A DNA stretch of 63,602 nt, filler included, from Rhabdomonas costata (lineage: Eukaryota), in assembly GCA_019059605.1 (NCBI GenBank). It is 31 parts of 31 records of this genome, joined end to end, with 100 filler letters (N's around TTAATTAATTAA, not from the genome) between each part and the next. Parts side by side here need not be neighbours in the genome. Positions count along the whole stretch, not along the records: positions 51,385 to 53,334 come from JAHMHO010007018.1; 30 more parts are not named here. One strand, given 5' to 3'. Both the position numbers and the translations under genes were made by a program. The notes under the pieces are model-generated. The model ran no database searches. It had not been told where the DNA came from and was given only the letters and a program-made list of their open reading frames with translations. Shown piece by piece: positions 2,059 to 63,602 of this stretch (positions are counted from its first letter, which is position 1; every line of letters starts with the position of its first letter).

Positions 2059-2420
2059 GTGTGGTGGGGTTTGGTGTTACGGTTGGTGCGAAGGGTATGT
2101 TGGTTGCGTAGGGTGTGTTGGTGGTTGCGTTGGTGGTAGCGTTGGTTGTAGCGTGTCGTGGAGTCGTAGTCGTTGGTGCTGATGCTGTAGGGGTTCGTGG
2201 TGTGGTTGGAGCTGGTGCGTTGGAGGTTGGTACGTTGGAGGTTGGTGCTGCTGCTGTGTGTTCTTCGCTCTCTGTCTCAGGGTCTGTCTCAGGGTCTGTC
2301 TCAACCATGCTCTCAGGGTTCGTGTCAACCATGCTCTCTTGCTTCGTAACCATGCTCTCTGTAACCATGCTCACTCTGTCTCTGTTCCTGCTGTTGTGTT
2401 GGTTGGTTGGTGCGTAGGGT
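2059..2420 (+). repeat. G/T-skewed low-complexity tract with short tandem units
   Basis: Repeated TCTGTCTCAGGG and AACCATGCTCTC units, directly upstream of the RT region. Confidence 0.7.
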
Positions 2421-4008
2421 GTGAGATGCGCAATGAAAGGGTCCACCGTTGGAAGGATATTCTTCCTACCCTCTGGGCTACCCAGAGCGCGCGCGTGTTC
2501 TCGTGGCTGAAGGCGGACACGCCGTCCTGGGGCTCTTCTCCTATTTTACAATGCTCGGGCATGCAGTGCACCACTCTCGAGGAGGTCGATATCCAGGTCC
2601 AGGACTTTTGGGTTAAAAAGATCTGGAACCTGCACGCCTCGGTGGATTCCGCGCAGCGATGGGCAGCTTTTCAGTCCTCGCCCTTCTTCGCACACATTCC
2701 GATGGACTGCAACGCTTGTGAGTCGGAGCGTGTGCGGACTGTCCTCCGGAGTATGCGGGAGGGCTCCTCTCCAGGGGCCCGAGGCTTCCCCATTTCTCTC
2801 TGGAGGGCCCTTCCGGACTCCTTCCTCAAGCGGGTAGCTGACCTCTTTACCTTGGTGGAGGTGGATGCGTTGTGGCCTAAGGAGCTCCTGACGGCATACT
2901 TCACGATGATCCCGAAGGCCTCGGGCGGTAGTCGCCCTCAGGACAAACGGCCGATCACAGGGCATGGTCATCACATGGGCCCCTGCCCTCCAGAGCTGTT
3001 ACCTCGGGTCCACGGTGATGGGGTTTCGGGCGCAGGCAGGCACCCTTCACCTCGTCCAACTGCTGGCCGACTTGATCGAGCTTCAGAAGCGGCGTCGGCA
3101 GCCCTTATGGCTGGTGTCGTTCGACGTGGAAAAATGCTTCCCGTCGCTGCCGTGGTGGGCCATTTTTGGCGTGCTGGAGCGGGCCGGAGCTCCTCCTCAT
3201 TTGGTGAACTGTTTCCGCAGTTTCTACAGCCACCTCCGCCAACGATTTCGCTACGGCCAGGTGGATGGTGCCGAGTGGAGTGCGGCCAACGGCCTTGCGC
3301 AAGGCTGCCCTGCGAGTCCCGACTTGATGAACATCTTGTTCGAGCCCTTCCACCGCTGGGCCGCTGTGTCGGAGTTCCTATCCTAGACGAGTTCATCGCC
3401 TCGGGCAGCTTCGCCGATGACGTGGCGCTGGTGGCCACCTCCCTTGCAGAGGTGCTGCTTCTGGTGAACGGGTACCAGGCCTGGTGCGACCTTACCCTCC
3501 ACGTGGAAAAGACAAAGCTGTGGTCGCTCCAAGGTCGCCCTGGCGATCATATTGAACTATCTTTGGCCAAGGGCCCTCTCACCTTGGAGCTTCAGCCTAC
3601 GTTCCGCATTGTGGGAGTTGAGCTGGGATCTCAGGAACGTGTCGCCACTACGGCTCACTTCGCTCCGCGTCTTGCAAAAGCTCTTCTGGGAGGCCGGCGG
3701 CTCGCTGCTCTGGAGGTACCCGCAGCAGTTGCTGCCCAGCTGTGGCGTACGGCCATTCTTCCCACGGCATTGTATGGCAGTGAGGTTCGGCGGGTTACCC
3801 CTTCTCAGCTTTGGCCCCTGGCTTTACAAGGCCGCAAGGTGGTGCCGGCGAAGCTCCCGCTCTCCATTTCTCAATACGGAGCCATTGGGAGCCTGCGCCT
3901 TCCGTGACCCCCGCCTGGATGTGCTGGCCCGTCGTCTACGGTGGCTCATTACGCTAGCCAATCTGCCCAGCTTGGTCGGGACGGTACACCGCTTTCTGGC
4001 CACCTCCT
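2420..4008 (+). mobile_element. Non-LTR (LINE-type) retrotransposon reverse transcriptase, frameshifted
   Basis: RT motifs in order across two frames: SSPGARG, IPKASG..RPI, GFR, SFDVEKCF, GLAQGCPASP, FADD. Frame changes near 2960, 3380 and 3890. No introns. Confidence 0.9.
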
Positions 4009-7160: not shown

Positions 7161-8680
7161 ACCCTTTGATATTCACATAAACAATCATGAACCTAACAGT
7201 TTTACTTTGCACTTACTCTCTTTATGCATAAGACAATAAAATTCATCAAAAACCGCTTTGTTTTGTGAAATATCCCACTCAAGATCCATTCAAAAAATGA
7301 GAGAGGAGAGAAAACGCGTAAGAAATGACCCCTTTTTGATGTTTTTCTATAACAAATGCTTCCAAGTGCCAAGTGTGACAAGTGTGTGAATTAGGTTGTA
7401 GAATAGAAATCATAAAAAGTGTATAAAAACGCAAAAAAAATACACCCGCAAAAGAGGGTGAAAAAGATGAGAGATGCAGAAGTGGTATTATCAAGACGTC
7501 TCACATGCATGTAATTGTCTTTAAGGTGTTTGTGGCCCCTTTGTTTTTGCTGCTCGTATGCTACGCAACGCTGTGCATATTTCCTAGATGTGATGATTCA
7601 TGTGCTCAACCGACATAAGCCGCGTACGAACATTCACCTACCCCCCACACTCTGCAGCGGTCGTTGGGGTGGTAATCATGAAAGATGAGTGGTGAGGGTC
7701 ACCCAAGATGTCCTTGATGGTCGCATAATCGCAACGCTCGTATGCTCCCTAAATGAAGTGGTTAGTGCATTACACCACCATAAGGTGTCTACATGCACTC
7801 ACTCTCTAAGGTCTTCACTCACTATGTTAGTTGTAGAAATGCCTTTAAGAGAGAAAAAGATGTTTATTTCTGGTCGCATACTCGCATACGCTCGTATACT
7901 CCCTACATTTGATGGTTCATTCGCTCCACTGCTACGCGGTTACAATATCAAAGATCAAATCACAGCAAAGGAGCCCATGTAGTAGATGAACCAGAAGGCA
8001 AATCCACCGCAACCAGAACCCGGACACCAAACGCATGAATCATTGAAGCAGCTCCGAACACAGCACCCACCTAACCACAACATCCAACCGACCATAGTTC
8101 ACAACAACAAAAATGAATCCAAGTCNNNNNNNNNNNNNNNNNNNNNNNNNNNNNNNNNNNNNNNNNNNNTTAATTAATTAANNNNNNNNNNNNNNNNNNN
8201 NNNNNNNNNNNNNNNNNNNNNNNNNGGTTGTGTGGCCGCGGGCAAGGGCGAGGCGGGACGGACTCAAAAGGATGGCAGCGGCAGCATCGTCCACGGGGAA
8301 GCCATTGATCGATGGGAAGGAATCAGCAGTTGTGAGCCCGACACTCGGGTGCAATCCAAACGGCCCTGCAGAAGACTTCAGCGGAAATTACCTGACTTCA
8401 CGAAGGACCGGCTCCGGCGAAAATGACAACGCGGCCATTCTGTGGAGGGAACGACTCGGGTTCAAAATTTCCGTTGGAAATGGACTCGACGAACGGTCGG
8501 TAATCGATGCAGTCCAGGACAGCGGTGCTTGACGTGGGGGTCGAGTGCTTTGTGTCTGTTGGATTGGTAGAAAAATGCACAGCCCGTGCAGCCGTTGAAG
8601 GAAAATGTTTTTGTTTGAAAGCGAAAGACGCACGGAAAAGGTGAATGGTTTGACTTCTCTCTGTGCCTTTGTGTCTGCAG

Positions 8681-9744
8681 GAAACAAGTACGAGGATGCC
8701 AAGCCGCTCTTTCTTCAAGCTGCGAATCAGTTCAAGGGAGCGAGCCTATGGGAGGAGGCCGGGAGGGCTTTCATTCGTGCGTCGGAGTGCTGTGCAAAAC
8801 TAAAGCATGCTTTTTTATGCTCCATTGCGGTTCCGACCATATCCTTTCAGGCTTTTTGTTTTTTCGGAAACAGCGTTTTCTTTTCGTTCTTTGCCATCTC
8901 AGGGAACCTCTGGATACCGCAAACAATCTCGCTGAGGCCGCAGCCATGTACAAGAAAGTCAATCCCTTGAAAGCAGCGGGCTTCCTTCAAGAAGGTGGCG
9001 CGAACATGTCTCGTTTGGGTAAAACCGTCCGTTTGTTGCGTGATGATGAGATTTGGTTTTAGATTTTCAGCACATTCAGTATTGCACAATTGGGACGCTG
9101 TGAGGGGCTCCTTGGCTGGGTTAAGGTATTTGAGGAATAGAGCGTTGTCCACCATGTTTTTTTTCTTCATTGCGTTTTCGTTGTGTTTCTTCCGGATGCC
9201 GTTCATGGTGGTGATGGTGATGCTCATGGACCCACCCCTCGGAGGGCGGGTAGAGCAGATCCACACCTATGTCAGAACAGGCGCGAACACATGGGGCTTG
9301 ACGCCCGGAGGAGCACGACGACCAGCACCGGCACGAGCACGAGCACCATGACCCACCTCGTGGTTGTGGATGTCGTCATGGATGGGTGCTGGCTGATGGT
9401 TTCGTTGTTCTTGCTCTACTTCAGAAAAGCAAGCATAATTGAAGCACTCCTCTGTAAAGGGGATTTGAAGTAACTGTTTGTCAACTTGTTTGAGACTTTG
9501 AGTTGAGGAAGTCTCCTAGAACAGTTTCATTTCGTTTTTTAATTCGCTGTCTTCTTTGCTGCCAGCTTTGGACACCTTCGACAAGTCGGGCCGTTTCAGC
9601 AAAAGCGCAAAACTCTCCTGCGACCTGGCAGAAACGTTTGAGAAGGACGGAAATCTGGACAGTGCCATGGAGTGGTACTTGAAGGCATCCGACTACTATC
9701 GTTCGGAGGGCTCCACCTCTACTAGCAACGGCTGCAGATTGAAG
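8681..9744 (+). CDS. SEC17: Alpha-soluble NSF attachment protein (alpha-SNAP/Sec17), internal exons
   Basis: Exons 8681-8804, 8903-8994 and 9566-9744 splice in frame: NKYEDA..F.QAANQFK...WEEAGRAF...ANNLAEAAAMYKKVNP...GRFSKSAK...AMEWYLKASDYY...NGCRLK. Intron 1 is GC-AG. Confidence 0.93.
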
Positions 9745-17485: not shown

Positions 17486-18340
17486 CGTTTTGCTCGACGA
17501 AAGTGATGGCGTACTGCTATGCGCGACGGCTGCGGGAGGCTGGGGTCACTGCGCAGCCGATTACGGGCACGATGGACGTTGCCCGGCGGCAGGGCATCCT
17601 GGATGACTTCATGAGCAAGGGCTTCCAAGTCCTCCTCTCCACAGACATGCTCAACCGGGGCCTGGGTGTGCACCTGACCGTGACACTCCGTAGCGTGTGT
17701 TCGGCAAATGATCTTGGGTACAGCACGAATTCAACATTCAATCTGTTTCATGGATGTATCTCCTGCATACATTGTCTTCCATCCATCCATATAATATGAT
17801 TATCATCATATTAACACCCGACATAGGCGTTGGATGTTCTGGACCAACCTCCAAAGGTATTTTAATCGGGAACGCTACCGACCGGAGATATGCAGTTCCA
17901 GGTGGTCAGTTGCATCCCCTATGCCTTAGTGTTGTTGCTCTTTCAGATTTGTGCGATCTGAGCGTCGTGGTGAATCTCGCGTTACCCAACTGCTTGCACA
18001 AGTTTATCACCCGAGTGGGAAGGGTCGCCCGGGCTGGCCGTCCGGGGGTGGCTCTGTCCTTCTACAACCCCGACACTGACGCCGAGATGAAAGGATATCT
18101 CGTGGCCCTGCTGCAGAAGAACGGTTCCCTTCTCTCTATTCCTTCTCCTCTTGGCAATATTTTATTTCTACACCTTGTTTTGGTTCTGACATCTCTCCTG
18201 AATTCAAGGCATTTCACTGGATCTGTTTTTGCAGAGCATGTATGTGTGTTTGCTATCTAAGGGGTTTTTTGAGCATGTGCATGTATGTCATGCAGGCCGT
18301 CCCTTGCCCCCGTTCTTCTCCCCGGAAGATGCAAAGGAAG
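17486..18340 (+). CDS. DEAD-box RNA helicase, C-terminal RecA2 domain
   Basis: Exons 17486-17665, 17947-18123 and 18296-~18340 carry motif IV (FCSTK), motif V (STDMLNRGLD) and motif VI (TRVGRVARAGRPG). Confidence 0.88.
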
Positions 18341-38910: not shown

Positions 38911-39292
38911 TCAGAGGAAGTGAGAAGCGAGGCGAACAAAAGAAAAGAAATAAAGAAATAAAAACGAAACCAACCNNNNNNNNNNNNNNNNNNNNNNNNN
39001 NNNNNNNNNNNNNNNNNNNTTAATTAATTAANNNNNNNNNNNNNNNNNNNNNNNNNNNNNNNNNNNNNNNNNNNNGTGGTTGTTGTGCACACACCTTCCT
39101 CTTTTGAGATGACGCGGGCCGTATGAGGACCGCTGACGAGGCGAGAAAAGGTTTGCAGTCTTCGAAGGTCTGCCACCGGGCGACAGAAGAGCAAGTCCAA
39201 TTGACAGGTTACTCTAAGTCCCTCCCGCACATCTTTCACACCTCGCTCCTCTGCTGCCTCCCCCTCCCTGCTTTGCGCCCCCACTGGCAAAC

Positions 39293-40939
39293 CATGTGAA
39301 GCAGGGAGACGATCAACGTGACGGCCAGCAGATAGGGGTTAGTCTTCACAAGCATCCGCCTCATGTCCTCGGATGGGGAGGCCCCGGGATCTACAACGGA
39401 ATGTTGGGTACAGAGAAGGACGTGGAATTCAACTCTTATTTTTCTCAGATTTCGCCCGCAGGGTTTCGTGTACTGGTGCGCTTCTGGTTTGGCCTGCCGA
39501 TTCTGAGCAAGAGCGGAGATGATGTGGCGACGTGCGCATTCCGCCAGACTACCTGTAATCTTTGGGTGCCACCCGCTCTGTTGCAAGAAGGCGGAGGTTT
39601 ATTCGCCGCAGCGTGTGTCGTGCTCTTACTGTTGCCATCCACAACGACCTAAAAACTCAGAGGATCTTCGGAGAATCACATTACACATGCCATTGTTCTC
39701 CCTGTGGATTTCTCCCTCCCCCCTACAGTGCCTTCCTGTCGTCCTGTCTCGTGGGTGCGGGTGCAGACCTGTCCTGTCCTGTAAATGTGGCCCTGTCATG
39801 TCTGTGTGGCGGCCTGAAAATCAGATATCACAAAAAGCGTGCCATTTGGTTTCGCACTGCATCAAGTCGCACATGGGCGTCGCCCATACGATCACCTTTA
39901 CCCCCACACCAACCACCAACCGCCACCTAAACGAGCCGAGCACCCACGGAAGGACGCAGACCAGAGCCCACTCCAGCCAACGGCATCATGTCCATCGTGT
40001 ACTCCATCTGCACCAGGAACTGCCACTTCCACAGGTCTACGGGGGCGTACGTGATCTGAAGGGACAGCGACTTGCCCTCCAGGGAGCGGTTGACCTCAAT
40101 CATGTCCTCCTACAAACGCAATCATTTCCAAGAAACACACAAGTAGTGAGGACGAACAGCCAAGTCATGATCTTCTTACAAGAAACACCTGATGTTCGGA
40201 ACCAGATACGCAGGGAAGTCAAGTTGCGGGACAGAAACCGGCCGAACGTGACACTTTACACAACTGTTATGCGAAGGGCTAATTTGCTGAGAACGTTCCC
40301 TGCTTTTCTTTGTGCTCTCCTCGCCTGCGCGCTTGAGGGACACAAAAAGCCATGTGGTGGCAAACTGCAGCAAACAGGGTCGAAGAAAAACGGTTTTTAT
40401 CAGTACAAAAACTCAAAGACAGACACACACACACACACAGTTTATTCTTTGTCTTGCCGGATGTGTGGAAAACACCCTCCCCCCCCCTCCCATGAAAAGT
40501 GCCTGTGAAACCCTTACTACATGGCCACGTTGACGCTGTGATTGTGTGACCATGCCTTCGTGTGACCGCCGGCTCCAGGGCGTGCGCGCGGGCGCAGGAA
40601 AAACATTTCGAAGAAAACGTGACCGTCTGGTCCACCCTATCAGCACTTGATGCTTCGTGTTAGAAAACTGAGGTGCCCACAGTGTCACTGACGCAGACCC
40701 ACAAACAGAAAAAGTAATTCTATTTTCGAAAAAGAAGAAGAAGAAGAAGAAGACTGCCGAAAACCGCGGCCTCCGTAAAAGTGTTTTTGCAGCATGGCCA
40801 CTCAGAAACGATGCCTTACCGGCAGCAGGCTGAACTCGTTCACATACAGCACGGGGGCCCACTGGCGAGACTTCCGGTCAAACTGGATCTGGTCCGCGAA
40901 GTGCGGAGGAAGCTGCGCCGGCGAGTACGTCGTCCAGTC
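39293..40939 (-). CDS. CLPTM1: CLPTM1-family membrane protein (lipid scramblase)
   Basis: Exons 40939-40820, 40109-39962 and 39390-39293: PVLYVNEF...EVN......L.L.I.Y.P..LWKWQ...MRRMLVKTNPYLLAVTLIVSLLHM. Confidence 0.92.
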
Positions 40940-49227: not shown

Positions 49228-51810
49228 NNNNNNNNNNNNNNNNNNNNNNNNNNNNNNNNNNNNNNNNNNNNTTAATTAATTAANNNNNNNNNNNNNNNNN
49301 NNNNNNNNNNNNNNNNNNNNNNNNNNNGTGTTGTGTGTTTGGTTGGGGGGGGTAGGACCACTTACTTTGGCCCCAAACCTCGCCAATCGCTTCACATCCG
49401 CCGTGGAGACCTAACATCGACCTCATAGCTCCAGCTAGAGTGACGAGTCGGCCTGAGATGGTTGGCCGCTTCCCGGCCTCGGACTCCTTCTCAACGCCGA
49501 GATGTGGCCCCTTCAAGGTTCCATTTTGGCCCTTTTAAGGGCACTTTTGACGTAAAAAATTTCAAGGGCCTGGGGTGCTTTTTTATAAACCTTTTCAGGC
49601 CTGCATAATGAGCCTAAGCTTTCGGCCGGGCCTGCTTAGTACCTTTACACAGGCTTGAAAGGACCATTTGTTTTGGCACTGGCTTTACATCGGGCTTTGG
49701 CTTTGGCTTTGATAAGAGAAAGAACTGTAGGCTGGCACACCATCCGCCCACCTGCACGCCGGTGTACCAGCAATTATTTACGTTTTTGTCGATGCTTGGG
49801 AGAACCTGAAATGTACTTGCCCTTATCCCTCCGTCGGTTGTTTTGTTTCAGCCTTGTAGGGTTTTCTATATTTGGCTTGGGTTTCCGAAGGGTTTGCACC
49901 TGTATGCCTCGGCTTGTTGAATCTTTTCAGCAGTGGGGATGCCCACCATAAAACCGCCCATGCGACCCAAGCAACCTGCAAATCTTGCATCCTGCAGAAT
50001 TGGACGACCGGGCTTTTGAGTTGCTGATGTCATTTGTCTTCGGATCCGCCTCAAAGTACTTCTGGAACATGTGCTTCCGCTCCGTTGCCCTTGACCCCAC
50101 ACCCACCTCGGGTAGGGTCATAGGGTACCTCTCGGAATTTCAATGGAAGAAGGGGGAGGGGGGATGCAAGAAGGACTTACAACGACTTTCCTAATTTTTT
50201 ATGTGGGGCAAAATTACGGCACAGCACAGGCACACAGGAGTTTTTGTAATGGCTGGGGTGCAGCACCAAACAAACAATTTACGCAAGAGAGATCCTGATT
50301 TCATTATTGTCGTTCTTGGAACGCATGTAGCACATCCCTCCCTTGCTCTCTGCACAACGTTTTGTGCTCCTTTTTGTTATGGCGCCCTTCACATTTGCAC
50401 AGCTTTGATTCTCAACTTGTTGCTTCATTGCGTTTTTTACCTCTCCCCCACCCCGTCATTTTGTGCCTTTTTTTTTCTATATTTTTACTCACATTTGGGT
50501 GTGAAGTTTCCGGACTTTTCGAAACGAGGGCAAGGCCGTAAAGAGAGACCCCCCCTTTTTTTTGCAATGGCGGATCAGTTGAGGTTCCCTGCCAGTGGAA
50601 AGTTCCCCACGGAGGTTTCTTCACCACTGCTCTCCTTTACCTCTTGACCGCCGTATGTTCGTGAGCGGAAACGGCCTCTGTTTGTGTGGGTGTGCCTTGG
50701 CATTGGACACCATGCACAGAGTGTCAGTTCATGTTTCTTCTCCTTTTTGCATCACAAACCTTCACGTCACCCGTTCCCGCGCAGCGCCGTCTTTCGATCC
50801 CCTTTGTTGAACACCGGGGTTTCTTGTCGGTCCCTCTCGTAGAAAATAAACGGGACGGAGCAGGAGGGAAGGATTGCAGAATTGCAGCCCTTCAGGTGCG
50901 TCCTCACCTCTTGCTGCTGTGTTGTATTCGTCGGTATGTAGGCTTCCTCATGCCCAAAGCGCAGCTCCAGAGACCATGTCAACATCCACGACCCGGACGA
51001 TCATCACGAGCCGCCAGTGCTCGGCCTTCGAAGGTACGCGCTGCGCATTGAATCCTATTTCGAGCTTTTTAGTTCAGCGGACGGCGTTTAACCTAATGGC
51101 AGCAGATGTGAATATGTGCATCCGCGCTGTGAAGTGGTTTTTTGTCCTTGCCAGTGTTGTGGTGTGTTGTCTTGTTCGTTGTTCGGGTTTCCCGTCCTCA
51201 GCTATTCCACGAGCTCCGCGGAGCTGGTATTCCTACCCGCCAGCTGCTTTGCAAACGACGTTCCGGGAAGCGCCCCCACCCACCNNNNNNNNNNNNNNNN
51301 NNNNNNNNNNNNNNNNNNNNNNNNNNNNTTAATTAATTAANNNNNNNNNNNNNNNNNNNNNNNNNNNNNNNNNNNNNNNNNNNNGGTGGTGGGGGTAATG
51401 CTTTCTTTGCAAACCCCCGCACCAAAATGGGTCGGCTTCAAACAGGTGTATTGTGCATTTGTCGTCGCACAGTGCGTGAGAACTGCATCAGAACAACGTG
51501 CAAGACAACCACAACAAAGAATCAGGGCCATGGCCAGGCTTAAGCCCTCCCAACATGAAACTCAAGGAAATAATTGACAAATGAATCTGTATGGAAGCCG
51601 AAAGTTCCACAGGGATCGCCGCTGGATCAAAACAGTTCAGCGTGCACAAGGTCGTAAAGGGAAACCCTGCAATGAACCACCCCGAATGGAAGTCATCCTA
51701 GCGGTATTGCCGTTTTGTCTCTTCATGCCGTGAGCAGGGGCCTCCGATGTAAAACCAACGGGATAGGCTTCCATCCGAATGAAGGGAATGACCTGCAACT
51801 CCGACACCGG

Positions 51811-53306
51811 TCAGAGTTTCGCTGCCCGTGCTCCAGAGACCTGTCTCATCCGGGCGTGAAGCATTTGGCCCAAGTCCCACCCCCGCTGGAAGCACCGCTG
51901 CAGGTCCGCTTCGCGGGGGACGTACCGCACCTCCACAGGGTCCACCTTGGGCACTTCCGCACCCATATCCGACAGAGCCTTTTCCAGCTGCGGCACAACT
52001 CCAGCGGCCCAACTGAGGGAGAAGCCGTGGTGGGGAGGGAAGCCTAAGTCCAAAGAGCTTCGGTCAACGAGTGACGTTCACAGAAGACAGCGCAAGTTAA
52101 AATAAAATAGAAGGTGGTGCAATGGCAACGCTTGATGCCCACACCGTGCCCAGGCCGCTCCAACTCATTTCGTGCCCGCTTGTGGAAGAGCGAGCGGGTG
52201 TTGGAATTTTTGTGACGTTTTGTCGCCTCTGTAGCTAACCTTTCGGTATTGCGTTTCAACCGGAAAGAAGCACTCTGAGGAGGCCTGCTCTCGGAACCCC
52301 AGACCCACTCTCTTTGACTTCCAGCGCACCCGTAGCTCCCGAAGGCTGCCCCAAGGAAGCCCTTCCGCCGCAGTCCCTGGAGGTACCCCAGGGTGTCCAG
52401 CAGGGCGGGCAAGGCGCGCCCGTTGAGTGTTGGGGAGCCCACCACCAGCAGCCCCGCATCCAGCAGTTCCGTGGCCACCACACTGCGGTGCGACGCCCCC
52501 TGCCGCAGTAGCTGCACCCTAACCTGCGTGTGTGTGTGTGTGCATGAGGCGCTAGCCGGGCCGTCTCAGGTGTGTAACATGTATATGGCCAGAATATGCT
52601 TGCTGTGTGGCGCACAATAAGGTCTGGTGCACATGCTCATTAGAAGACAGAGGACAGAGGTGTGCAGGAAAGGTGTCGACTCTTAGGGTACGGAGGTTGG
52701 GTAAACAGTGGAATTAAGAGGAATTAAAGGCTGCACCAGCGCACTTTTCATTTAAACGATTTGCTTTTGCTTTCCCCAAAGCTGTCCAAGAAGAAGCAGA
52801 TTACCCCGACTCTCTTTTTGAATCCGGTAAAGAGGATGAGTCGACAGAAAGGGGAAGACACCCCAGCAGAAATCAGCCCCTCCGCCAGAGCCTGTGCCAT
52901 GCTCTCCACGCTGCCCCACATTGTGTCGTACAGCACAACGGCTCTGAGGGAGGGCCTCTGTGCTGCCCACCGCAGCGTGGCAGCGACAATCCATTCCCTG
53001 AGCAGATGCGGGAAATGAGAGCATCAGAAGTTCAAGAGTAAAACCCAAACAAAAGAAATCCTGCAAGCGCAAATAGGAACCTGAGGGTAGCAGGGTTAGC
53101 AAGCAGCAAATTATACAAATCAGATCATAAATTAGAGAAACGCCAACCAGAGGCACAGAGGCAGAATCTCCAGTTCTCCAGATCAAGTTCCTCCCAAACA
53201 AAATGCAGACACACTTGTGCTCTCTCCACAGTGGCCCGTGGTCCGGGGCTATGATCTCTACGGCCTTGAGGAGCTCTGCCGACCGTTTCGCTACTCGCTC
53301 AATGAC
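51811..53306 (-). CDS. Flavodiiron protein (FprA/A-type flavoprotein; O2/NO reductase), C-terminal half with 3 introns
   Basis: Exons 53306-53215, 52997-52862, 52523-52330 and 52012-51811: IIAPDHGPLWR...VVLYDTMWGSVESMAQALAEG...VVGSPTLN...GAAFGSYG|WAAG...GWDLG...*. This covers the end of the beta-lactamase domain and the full flavodoxin domain. Confidence 0.95.
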
Positions 53307-53434
53307 CTATGGTTACGCCACAACAGAATTCGCANNNNNNNNNNNNNNNNNNNNNNNNNNNNNNNNNNNNNNNNNNNNTTAATTAATTAANNNNNNNNNN
53401 NNNNNNNNNNNNNNNNNNNNNNNNNNNNNNNNNN

Positions 53435-54005
53435 TTGTGGGTTGATTTTTATCCGTTCAATGCAATCAAGATCATAGATTCGTATCCATTACCTCGCATT
53501 GATGAAATGATTTATTACGCTGGTAAGGCTAAAGTGTTTTCGAGGTTATATTTGCATGCAGGTTTTCATCAGATTCGTATTCATCCTGAGCATGTGGAGC
53601 GTACAGCATTTACGACGAAGTACGGCAAGTTTCAGTTTTTGGTGATGCCGCGTTTGTTGTGCAATGCGCCAGCGACGTTCCACAGGACGATGGACTTCAT
53701 TCTGGAGGATCTGAGAGAAACGACTGGAGCATATGTGTATGACATCTTGGTGCACACTTACACCATGGCGAAGCATGCTGAAGCGTTGAGAGTGTTGTAT
53801 AGTATATTGCGGAATGAGAAGCTGTTTGCTAATCCCTAGAAGTGTGTGTTTGGTCAGCCAGAAGTGTAGTACTGTTGGTTCATTGTGTGGAGAGATGGAA
53901 TAAGGCCACATCCGAGGAATTTGATGGCGATTTATAAATGGCCAACGTTGAGGAACCCAGTGGATGTGAAGAGCTTTCTTGGTCTTTGTGTGTTTACCTT
54001 GAGTC
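53435..54005 (+). mobile_element. Ty3/Gypsy LTR retrotransposon RT, inactivated
   Basis: DSYPLPRIDE...GFHQIR...TAFTTKYG.FQF.VMP..LCNAPATF. The catalytic YxDD is mutated to YVYD, and in-frame stops follow at 53837 and beyond. Confidence 0.93.
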
Positions 54006-61648: not shown

Positions 61649-62633
61649 GTCTTTTGTTCAAAGAGGTGAGATTAGGGAAAAACGTCGACGCAGCAAGTGC
61701 TTGCAACCCTGACGATCCTATTCCGTTCCGGCACACATCCAAGAACGTGAGGTCGGGAAAGAAATGTGAGGAGGCGAGCATCTGCAATCCCTCTGATCCG
61801 ATGCGATTGCGGCCTAATTCCAGTGACGCGAGCTCGGGAAAAAAGGAAGAAGTAGCAAACGCTTCGACTCCCGCAGCCCCGATCTCATTATGGCATAAAT
61901 TTAAGCACTGGAGGTTGGTGAAGAAGGAGGAAGCTGCCAGAGCCTGTATTCCTGCATCCCCGACAATGTCAAAGCCAGCATTCACGACTGTGAGGTTTGG
62001 AAACAAAGGTGATGCCATCAGCGCACCCAGCCCAACTTGTCCGATCCTGTTACCGGCAATGTGAAGAGACTTAAGCTCGGAGAAAAACGGTGAGGATGAG
62101 AACGCTTGCATACCGGCAGCCTCAATCTGGTTGTCGCTTGCATTGAGAGTCGTCAATTTGGGGAGAAAGCAGGATGCAGCAAGCGCTCGCATTCCGGAAG
62201 ACCCAATCTCACTCTGTCGCACATCTAAGGATGTGAGTTTCGTGAAGAGCGAAGAGGCCATAAGCGTCTGCATTCCCGAAACTCCAAATGCTGAAAAGCT
62301 CACTATCAAAGACGTGAGGTTGGGGAAGAGAGAAACATTGGATCCAACAACCACTTCTGCAGCACCAATCCGACCCAAGAGCTCCAGGTCCTCCTTTTCT
62401 TTAATCGAGAGCTCCCCAGCGGAGCAAACCAGCCAGACAGCCTCGCGAACACGTTCCATGCTGAAAGAATCTCGGAGGGACCTCGAAAATCGAGGGGTTG
62501 CCTTCCATTCCAGGACGAGACATTCATCAACAATGCGTCGAAACCGCCGGCAGACTAGCCGAAGGGTCAGATGCAGCTCCATCCGAAGGAACCGAAAGCA
62601 ACAAACCAATGCGTCCTCAGAAAGCGCGGACAT
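61649..62633 (-). CDS. F-box plus RI-like leucine-rich repeat protein, intronless, 3'-truncated
   Basis: N-terminal LSEDALVCCFRFL.......LRLVCRRFRRIV (F-box), followed by about 8 repeats of 28 aa of the form FPxLTxLxxxxNxIGxxGxxALAxSxF. Confidence 0.9.
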
Positions 62634-63602
62634 CGACACTTCGGACTCCTTTCTTTCTCAGCGCTTCAAAACAGAACAAAGCACAAGACTAGAAAAGTGA
62701 AACGCGAGGAAGCCACCCCAAAATTTGCGCAATACGCTCGTGCACCGAAATCTTTTTCCTCCAACACCATAATGATCACATCTAATGCAATCCCAACACA
62801 TCGTCAAAGCTCTGTGTCCTCGCCAAACTCACCAACGGAGATAAAATTTATTCGCACCGTGGTGCCTCCTCTCAACGTCGCCCCCTTCTTCGATCAATAG
62901 AAAGCGAGCGGTCAAAGATTCAGCAAAAAAAACCTCTGCATTATGCATTACCTGTAACAGGATGCCCGGCAAGGACGTGACACCCTTCCTTACCACCGCT
63001 AAACATCTGCCCGTGTCTGGGGGCCCAAGGCAGCCCCGTTCATTTGGAGCAGCCGCTGATATATGTGGGATTGCCACGCCACCGTTGGAGCTTCCGGCGG
63101 CAGGACTTCAATGCCTGGAAGCATCGACGGGTCAGCAGTCGATCGAGTCCGTGTGCAAGAGGACAAGACAGGTGCTGCCCGCTCACAACCTCAAAAGTAG
63201 CCCTCACCAGCGCCAGTGGGGTCCCGCGGGATCACCACAGCGGAGCTACCCGCGTTGGCCCCATGCACGGAGACCTTGATTGCGTGCCGCAGCTGCCGCC
63301 GAGCCTTGCACCTCAGCTCCTCGTCGCCTGCATGTTGCACAAAACCATACCAACCTCCACAAAAAATCGCCACCAAACAATGCAAATCAAGAAGGACTTC
63401 CTCAAGAACACATTTAGTAACCACTGGTTGAGCTCCGGGCAAATGATTCTTCTTTATGCTATCTTACTGCTGAGATTGTGGCAAAATTTTCCCGAATGCC
63501 AGTGTACAATTGTGCTGGCCGATACTGATTTCCTGGGTCACGTTTGCTACATCTCACTTGTCTGCCGTCCTTGCATAACTTTCTTCCTGTTTTCACTGCC
63601 TG

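Follow-up and report, generated by a model that had tools for sequence, protein, structure and literature searches.

A probable intron-bearing eukaryotic gene for a two-domain, class A type flavodiiron protein in the Rhabdomonas costata assembly

Introduction

Does the gene for a prokaryote-type flavodiiron protein (FDP) found on the minus strand at positions 51811-53306 of a 63,602-base stretch of the Rhabdomonas costata assembly GCA_019059605.1 (the whole stretch is called the window below) belong to a eukaryotic nuclear genome, and which kind of FDP does it encode? Our analysis indicates that it is probably the 3′ half of a nuclear eukaryotic gene with spliceosomal introns, encoding a two-domain FDP of class A type, and that it would represent an old acquisition from bacteria.

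Class A FDPs are a standard example of bacterial genes that help eukaryotes to cope with O2 or NO in low-oxygen niches. They reduce O2 (to water) or NO with electrons from separate partners such as rubredoxin and its reductase (PMC12528894). Eukaryotic representatives are described for Giardia, Spironucleus, Trichomonas, Entamoeba, Mastigamoeba, Sawyeria, Stygiella, Pygsuia, and Breviata and are of bacterial origin, with at least two acquisitions inferred and monophyly of the eukaryotic sequences rejected (PMC4989108, PMC1484493). A class A FDP is also present in Histomonas (PMC12528894). FDPs whose class is not stated in the source passages were reported for Monocercomonoides (PMC6759080) and for Euglena gracilis, in the latter case as one FDP gene in a very fragmented assembly (bioRxiv 10.1101/228015).

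Structure of the FDP Gene

The minus-strand gene model at 51811-53306 consists of four exons and three GT-AG introns and yields 207 codons plus a TGA stop codon. It lies wholly within one contig, and the flanking parts of the gene lie beyond the contig ends. The features of this contig are given below, where NF008887 is the NCBIfam FDP model with 396 positions, nt stands for nucleotides, (-) for the minus strand, and a slash for an exon-intron border.

51385..53334: gene-bearing contig, 1950 bp, with N44-TTAATTAATTAA-N44 linkers on both sides
53307..53334 (-): last 28 nt of a probable upstream intron, with the AG acceptor at 53308-53307 and an in-frame TAG directly before exon A
53306-53215 (-): exon A, 92 nt, residues 1-30 plus 2 nt; end of the beta-lactamase-like domain; NF008887 positions 210-231
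52998..53214 (-): intron 1, 217 nt, GTGTGT...CAG, phase 2
52997-52862 (-): exon B, 136 nt; start of the flavodoxin-like domain; NF008887 positions 236-275
52524..52861 (-): intron 2, 338 nt, GTGTCT...(CA)n GCAG, phase 0
52523-52330 (-): exon C, 194 nt; best-conserved exon, with the motifs HRS.VATELLDA, GSPTLNG, and FGSYG; NF008887 positions 282-344
52013..52329 (-): intron 3, 317 nt, GTGCGC...CAG, phase 2; cuts a Gly codon between FGSY and the next Trp
52012-51811 (-): exon D, 202 nt including TGA at 51813-51811; end of the flavodoxin domain and tail; NF008887 positions 346-394
51814..51822 (-): last three codons, Ala-Lys-Leu, a C-terminal tripeptide resembling peroxisomal targeting signal type 1 (PTS1)
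51835..51840 (-): spare candidate donor CAG/GTCTCT, nine codons before the stop
51385..51810 (-): probable 3′ untranslated region or flank, without recognisable domain

The coordinates proposed in a first-pass annotation of this DNA proved to be exact, as judged from the gene model, the colinearity with NF008887, and a gapless alignment. All introns that are complete on the contig (3/3) run from GT to AG, their phases being 2, 0, and 2. Since none of the three lengths is divisible by three, the reading frame exists only after splicing. The GC content is 60-70% in the exons and 44-54% in the introns. The four exon translations match NF008887 colinearly, and the joined sequence of 207 amino acids aligned to four FDPs of 397-411 amino acids with 45-47% identity and 170-179 bits, all three junctions being free of gaps. 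Whereas this exon-intron structure is directly evident, splicing in vivo is predicted from it.

When four bacterial FDPs were compared by tblastn with the 31 contigs of the window, significant matches were obtained only on the FDP contig (E-values from 2e-20 to 2e-3), the best match elsewhere having an E-value of 0.36, and no N-terminal half of an FDP was detected in any of the 31 contigs. This half is missing because the contig ends there and not because the gene is short. As an in-frame TAG and an AG acceptor lie upstream of exon A, a fourth intron probably exists at this position.

For comparisons with bacteria we used a set of 84 sequences. It comprises four FDPs of uncultured bacteria (P0001-P0004) and 80 loci (L001-L080) from a scan of one genome per prokaryotic species, in which 131 stretches matched, 109 of them encode relatives, and 80 were kept. 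The latter come from Elusimicrobiota, Planctomycetota, Armatimonadota, Myxococcota, and other phyla. Along all 207 residues, the window protein was 36.9% to 49.5% identical to the 84 sequences. Exon C was 50-71% identical to the 80 kept loci, and a word-index search with this exon among longer proteins yielded four FDPs with 58-66% identity, all of them two-domain proteins of 397-411 amino acids.

The bacterial origin of the nearest full-length relatives would fit a contamination of the assembly by bacterial DNA, with the apparent introns being chance or assembly artefacts. This explanation is effectively refuted: three insertions of 217-338 nt are located exactly at the breaks in homology, have GT-AG ends, and each shift the frame, no bacterial relative is more than 49.5% identical, and other contigs carry eukaryotic exons (SNAP, CLPTM1, F-box/LRR, reverse transcriptase). 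The earlier view that a prokaryote-type FDP split by introns of spliceosomal type is not bacterial contamination was thus borne out by the frame-breaking introns and the gapless junctions.

Domain Architecture and Conserved Residues

Only the final stretch of the beta-lactamase-like domain is located on the contig. It includes the APDHGP motif in exon A (53232-53249), of which A20, P21, D22, H23, and G24 are all among the conserved columns that are retained. The diiron site of FDPs has seven ligands (a His/Glu/Asp-His cluster, His, Asp, and His), and the His of this motif (53238-53240) would be the last of them. A flavodoxin-like domain for binding of flavin mononucleotide (FMN) directly follows the lactamase-like domain, as evident from NF008887 positions 236-394, the 170-179 bits mentioned above, and a match of exon B to Pfam Flavodoxin_1 (E 2.8e-4, 21.5 bits), which is below the 25-bit cut-off because the exon is a fragment. 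Another Pfam match, of exon C to DUF2759, had 16.7 bits, which is under the cut-off of this family, and was discarded as spurious.

Fifty columns are at least 90% conserved in the 84 bacterial relatives, and the window protein keeps 45 of them. The lowest values for bacterial sequences in a leave-one-out comparison were 42/52, 44/50, and 45/50. The five changed columns are K49R, T61V, D91V, F114L, and A118L, T61V being the replacement by Val of the usual Thr in the FMN phosphate loop, which is located at 52907-52924 in exon B. Because 45 of the 50 conserved columns are kept despite a long branch (see below), we read the gene as constrained and not as dead. Its product looks functional, and the gene itself appears to be old and fast-evolving and still under constraint. 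Position W58, which we take to be the site in the flavodoxin domain that influences the preference for O2 or NO, is Trp here and in at least 90% of the 84 bacterial relatives. A second residue that presumably contributes to this selectivity falls in the missing half.

The alignment extends to within a few residues of the C-termini of the homologues. The stop codon follows 27 residues after a conserved Cys, whereas the median distance in the bacterial relatives is 17 residues (range 14-28, n = 84), so that the tail of the window protein exceeds this median by about 10 residues. In the 425 bp downstream of the stop codon, none of four open reading frames (ORFs) matched a Pfam family with an E-value ≤ 1. 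Based on these two observations, the claim that the protein ends just after the flavodoxin domain and lacks a C-terminal flavin reductase was supported. The lack of an extra redox domain after the flavodoxin domain corresponds to class A, an assignment to be read with the spare donor at 51840 and the off-contig N-terminus in mind.

Relationship to Known FDPs

The best matches of the window protein in the PDB were bacterial enzymes, namely rubredoxin:oxygen oxidoreductase (ROO) of Desulfovibrio gigas (1e5d) and FprA of Moorella thermoacetica (1ycf). Exon C matched 1e5d with 43.4 bits, 1ycf with 36.8 bits, and the Giardia enzyme (2q9u) with 21.5 bits, and exon B matched 1e5d with 27 bits, 1ycf with 32.7 bits, and the core of a Synechocystis Flv protein (6h0c/6h0d) with 13.3 bits. 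The Giardia enzyme was neither among the 17 matches of exon B nor among the five of exon D (E ≤ 10), and 6h0c/6h0d were not among the matches of exon C (E ≤ 1). At its C-terminal end, the window protein resembles bacterial class A FDPs in the two-domain architecture and in the motifs APDHGP, GSPTLNG, and FGSYGW. It differs from them in that its gene carries introns of spliceosomal type, in the identity of at most 49.5%, and in the longer tail ending in AKL.

Class C Flv proteins (FlvA/FlvB, Flv1-4) of cyanobacteria, green algae, mosses, and Symbiodiniaceae have the FDP core in common with the window protein, and the algal genes are likewise nuclear and intron-bearing. Flv proteins possess a C-terminal extension of about 160 amino acids (PMC1484493), which is a flavin-reductase-like domain (PMC4390876). 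In contrast, the frame of the window gene ends after the flavodoxin domain and the score to the Flv core is weak (for exon B, 13.3 bits to 6h0c versus 32.7 bits to Moorella FprA), in agreement with the distance from cyanobacterial and algal Flv proteins assumed before. Judged from its C-terminal end, the window protein has the architecture of class A and a sequence of the bacterial ROO/FprA type; it is not an algal or cyanobacterial Flv.

With the class A FDPs of Giardia, Trichomonas, Entamoeba, Mastigamoeba, Stygiella, Pygsuia, and other microaerophilic protists, the window protein shares the prokaryotic derivation, the two-domain structure, and the location of its gene in a putative eukaryotic nuclear genome. 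The resemblance to protist class A enzymes claimed in the first-pass annotation therefore holds for the architecture, but it does not extend to close sequence similarity, as the Giardia enzyme scores below bacterial ROO and FprA. Two FDP-bearing protist genomes are intron-rich, that of Mastigamoeba having 3.4 introns per gene (PMC4989108, PMC8136499, PMC6759080, bioRxiv 10.1101/228015), so that the presence of an FDP in an intron-bearing protist genome is by itself no novelty. According to the source passages, Mastigamoeba has a GC content of 60.7% and introns of 137 bp and Monocercomonoides a GC content of 36.8%, values that do not match the window with its GC content of about 50% and introns of 217-338 bp. 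As class A FDPs of protists are already documented (in the four sources just cited), the novelty of the gene is lower than that annotation had implied. Transfers of this type have precedents in several protists; what sets the gene apart is limited to its AKL tail and its deep divergence.

A quick maximum-likelihood tree was calculated from 85 rows (the window protein and the 84 bacterial sequences) and 197 columns. It contained no supported sister of the window protein, the best pairing being that with a Nitrospiraceae row (33% support), and for this reason no donor lineage can be named. The phylogeny that had been suggested as a check was thus obtained for its prokaryotic part, with a long branch and no supported sister among the bacterial rows as its outcome. 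As a separate observation in this tree, the FDP of a bin labelled Eggerthellaceae (Actinomycetota) fell within a tight Elusimicrobiales clade with 100% support (L070 and L071), probably because the contig was binned wrongly or because the gene moved recently between gut bacteria.

A Shared C-Terminal Tail Ending in AKL

An exhaustive HMMER search with exon D among 1.84 billion cluster representatives returned a single protein, P0005, with 58% identity. P0005 is a fragment of 62 amino acids called on a 2212-bp metagenome contig, and the identity spans all 62 residues. It scored 78.2 bits against the window protein, and its highest score among the 84 bacterial rows was 36.2 bits. Like the window protein, P0005 has the conserved residues and an AKL end; unlike it, only the equivalent of the last exon is known. 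The fragment starts within five residues of the intron-3 junction of the window gene, which would fit an intron at the corresponding position of the source gene. The look-alikes of exon D in the Atlas were bacterial flavodoxin-like fragment clusters only.

The window protein and P0005 both end in AKL though the residues just before have diverged. The consensus of the peroxisomal import signal PTS1 is [SAC]-[KRH]-[LM]. A C-terminal tripeptide of the form [SAC][KRH][LM] is present in the window protein and in 0/84 of the bacterial relatives. We tentatively consider that the C-terminal extension ending in AKL, which is shared with P0005, may serve for import into peroxisomes via the PTS1 route.

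Use of the spare donor at 51840 would mean that the AKL tail is replaced by off-contig exons, which might encode a further redox domain like those of classes B-H or algal Flv proteins. Such a longer protein is conceivable in that the sequence CAG/GT located nine codons before the stop is consensus-like and the contig ends 425 bp past the stop. We regard it as highly improbable, however, since the AKL end is conserved in P0005 despite the diverged preceding tail, since no domain is present in the remaining 425 bp, since the nearest relatives are all two-domain proteins of 397-411 amino acids, and since the similarity of the window protein to the Flv core is weak. Furthermore, CAG/GTCTCT has a C at +3, whereas a G is found at this position in 4/4 inferred GT donors, i.e., the three used donors of the FDP gene and the donor of a helicase gene on another contig (G/GTGTGC), which resembles the FDP donors. 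We therefore keep to the protein that ends in AKL.

Constraint and Host of the Gene

Several points weigh against a functional eukaryotic class A gene of this host. The contig is short and unplaced, which leaves the assignment to the host provisional. About half of the protein is encoded on the contig, and six of the seven diiron ligands would belong to the off-contig half. T61V in the FMN loop and the exchange of a near-invariant Asp for Val (D91V) could reflect relaxed constraint, and the end branch of the window protein in the tree has 1.42 changes per site compared to a median of 0.14. The ratio of observed to expected CpG (CpG o/e) in the FDP contig is 0.67, the lowest of the 31 contigs, with three others at 0.68-0.70. 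The interpretation of the AKL end is based on two sequences, and we know of no electron donor for an FDP in peroxisomes. Finally, metagenome scans with the alignment of exon D and P0005 (193 pattern matches) and with exon C (599 pattern matches) led to 0 confirmed close relatives in either case, a word-index search with the exon D alignment among longer proteins to 0 of 364 candidates, and a search with exon C among proteins of 35-112 amino acids to 0 of 2 candidates.

The very long branch, the two exchanges in the FMN phosphate loop (T61V) and in a near-invariant motif (D91V), and the off-contig position of the N-terminal half are what one might expect of a decaying relic of an old transfer that no longer encodes an active enzyme. 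We consider this quite unlikely, because neither a stop codon nor a frameshift occurs over 207 codons, all splice sites are canonical, and the 45 retained columns are within the bacterial range. In addition, the conserved residues and the tail are also present in P0005, at an identity of 58%, which argues for purifying selection.

The host of the gene has to be judged from the contig itself. The window consists of 31 contigs of 1929-1960 bp and 30 linkers of the form N44-TTAATTAATTAA-N44. Because the contigs are joined only by these linkers, adjacent window sequence is not physically linked to the FDP contig and provides no genomic context; gene-neighbour arguments across any of the 100-bp linkers (e.g., 51285-51384 and 53335-53434) are unsound. 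The window has a GC content of about 50%, and the other contigs hold parts of alpha-SNAP, helicase C, CLPTM1, and F-box/LRR (leucine-rich repeat) genes and two reverse-transcriptase pieces. Because of these eukaryotic gene pieces and reverse-transcriptase fragments, we read the assembly as that of a eukaryotic genome that is fragmented, contains transposons, and has a GC content of about 50%. An Rfam scan of the window gave 0 matches, and so did searches, allowing up to three mismatches, for spliced-leader motifs of dinoflagellates and of Euglena.

It might be argued that a second eukaryote in the sequenced material, such as a contaminant, prey, or symbiont protist, is the owner of a real eukaryotic FDP gene. 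The contig of 1.95 kb is unplaced and unlinked and has no repeat in common with the other 30, its CpG o/e is the lowest of all 31, and class A FDPs are typical of microaerophilic protists (PMC4989108, PMC12528894). On the other hand, the GC content of the FDP contig (0.549; range over the 31 contigs 0.458-0.597), its trinucleotide distance (rank 17/31), and the GC content at third codon positions (GC3) of the FDP exons (0.75 versus 0.51-0.81 in other putative exons of the window) are all inside the spread of the other contigs, the style of the donors matches that of the helicase gene on another contig, and the lack of shared repeats says little as only one contig pair among the 31 shares any repeat. 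We therefore regard a second eukaryote as an unlikely source. The composition of the FDP contig fits the same genome as the other 30 contigs, and a nuclear gene of the sequenced eukaryote probably remains the better description.

Possible Function and Significance

In the scenario that we favour, the gene would derive from an ancient transfer out of bacteria, with enough time since then for at least three and probably four introns to be inserted and for the sequence to diverge strongly. Its activity and substrate are assigned here by analogy and, like its host, provisionally. By comparison with characterised class A FDPs, two copies of the protein would associate head to tail as a homodimer, with electrons moving from the FMN of either monomer to the diiron site in the opposite one. 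In a class A FDP monomer, the diiron site and FMN are about 40 Å apart, whereas in the head-to-tail dimer the distance is about 9 Å, which permits electron transfer (PMC12528894). At the diiron site, O2 could be converted to water or NO to N2O, and a separate partner, such as rubredoxin, would provide the electrons. Those protist class A FDPs that were assayed reduce O2 (PMC4989108, PMC12528894), and the enzymes of Giardia and Trichomonas, whose affinity for O2 is high, presumably serve in its detoxification (PMC4989108).

A more far-reaching proposal, which we regard as rather doubtful, is that the window gene and P0005 represent a separate old eukaryotic class A lineage apart from the Giardia/Trichomonas and Entamoeba/Mastigamoeba clades. 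With its introns and PTS1, this lineage might work in the peroxisomes of a protist or alga that has a large, transposon-rich genome and is possibly aerobic, where it might reduce O2 or NO without release of reactive oxygen species. The known protist class A FDPs are reported to be located in the cytosol or, via N-terminal signals, in mitochondrion-related organelles (PMC4989108), in contrast to the PTS1-like tail of the window protein. Full-text literature searches on flavodiiron with peroxisomes or PTS1 revealed no report of a peroxisomal FDP among the matches listed. If the AKL tail truly directs the protein to peroxisomes, this would be a new cellular location for an FDP and would raise the question of the electron donor there.

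A strongly diverged, intron-rich copy of a class A FDP gene is a data point on the frequency and the age of such transfers, and it illustrates the gain of introns by transferred genes. Should the host turn out to be a normal aerobic protist or alga, class A FDPs would have a wider known range.

Other Features of the Window

The remaining contigs contain several recognisable gene pieces. Two alpha-SNAP exons are located at 8680-8967 on the plus strand (Pfam SNAP, E 3.8e-11), both with the acceptor CAG/G. The intron between them seems to start with GC (GCATGC) and not with GT, which may be a non-canonical donor. The C-terminal helicase exon (17488-17670, plus strand, donor G/GTGTGC) and a CLPTM1 exon (39284-39379, minus strand) are pieces of ordinary eukaryotic housekeeping genes with a GC3 of about 0.8, like the FDP exons. 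An intronless ORF of 336 codons at 61650-62657 on the minus strand encodes an F-box followed by about ten leucine-rich repeats of RNI type (LRR_6, E 4e-27), and its look-alikes in the Atlas belong to a mixture of Mucoromycota, Rotifera, Chlorophyta, Haptophyta, and bacteria that points to no particular host.

Reverse-transcriptase fragments (RVT_1) are present at 53435-53839 and 2910-3383, both on the plus strand, with E-values of 7e-14 and 1e-11, respectively. The former ORF ends at an in-frame stop codon (53837-53839) with at least one further stop just after it and looks like a decayed copy of a retrotransposon. The latter fragment overlaps, in another frame, with an open frame of 574 codons at 2183-3904 on the plus strand, which has no Pfam match and carries short tandem repeats at its 5′ end. 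The contig concerned has the highest GC content (0.597) and is the joint-largest trinucleotide outlier, and the open frame may belong to a transposon or may have arisen by chance in GC-rich DNA.

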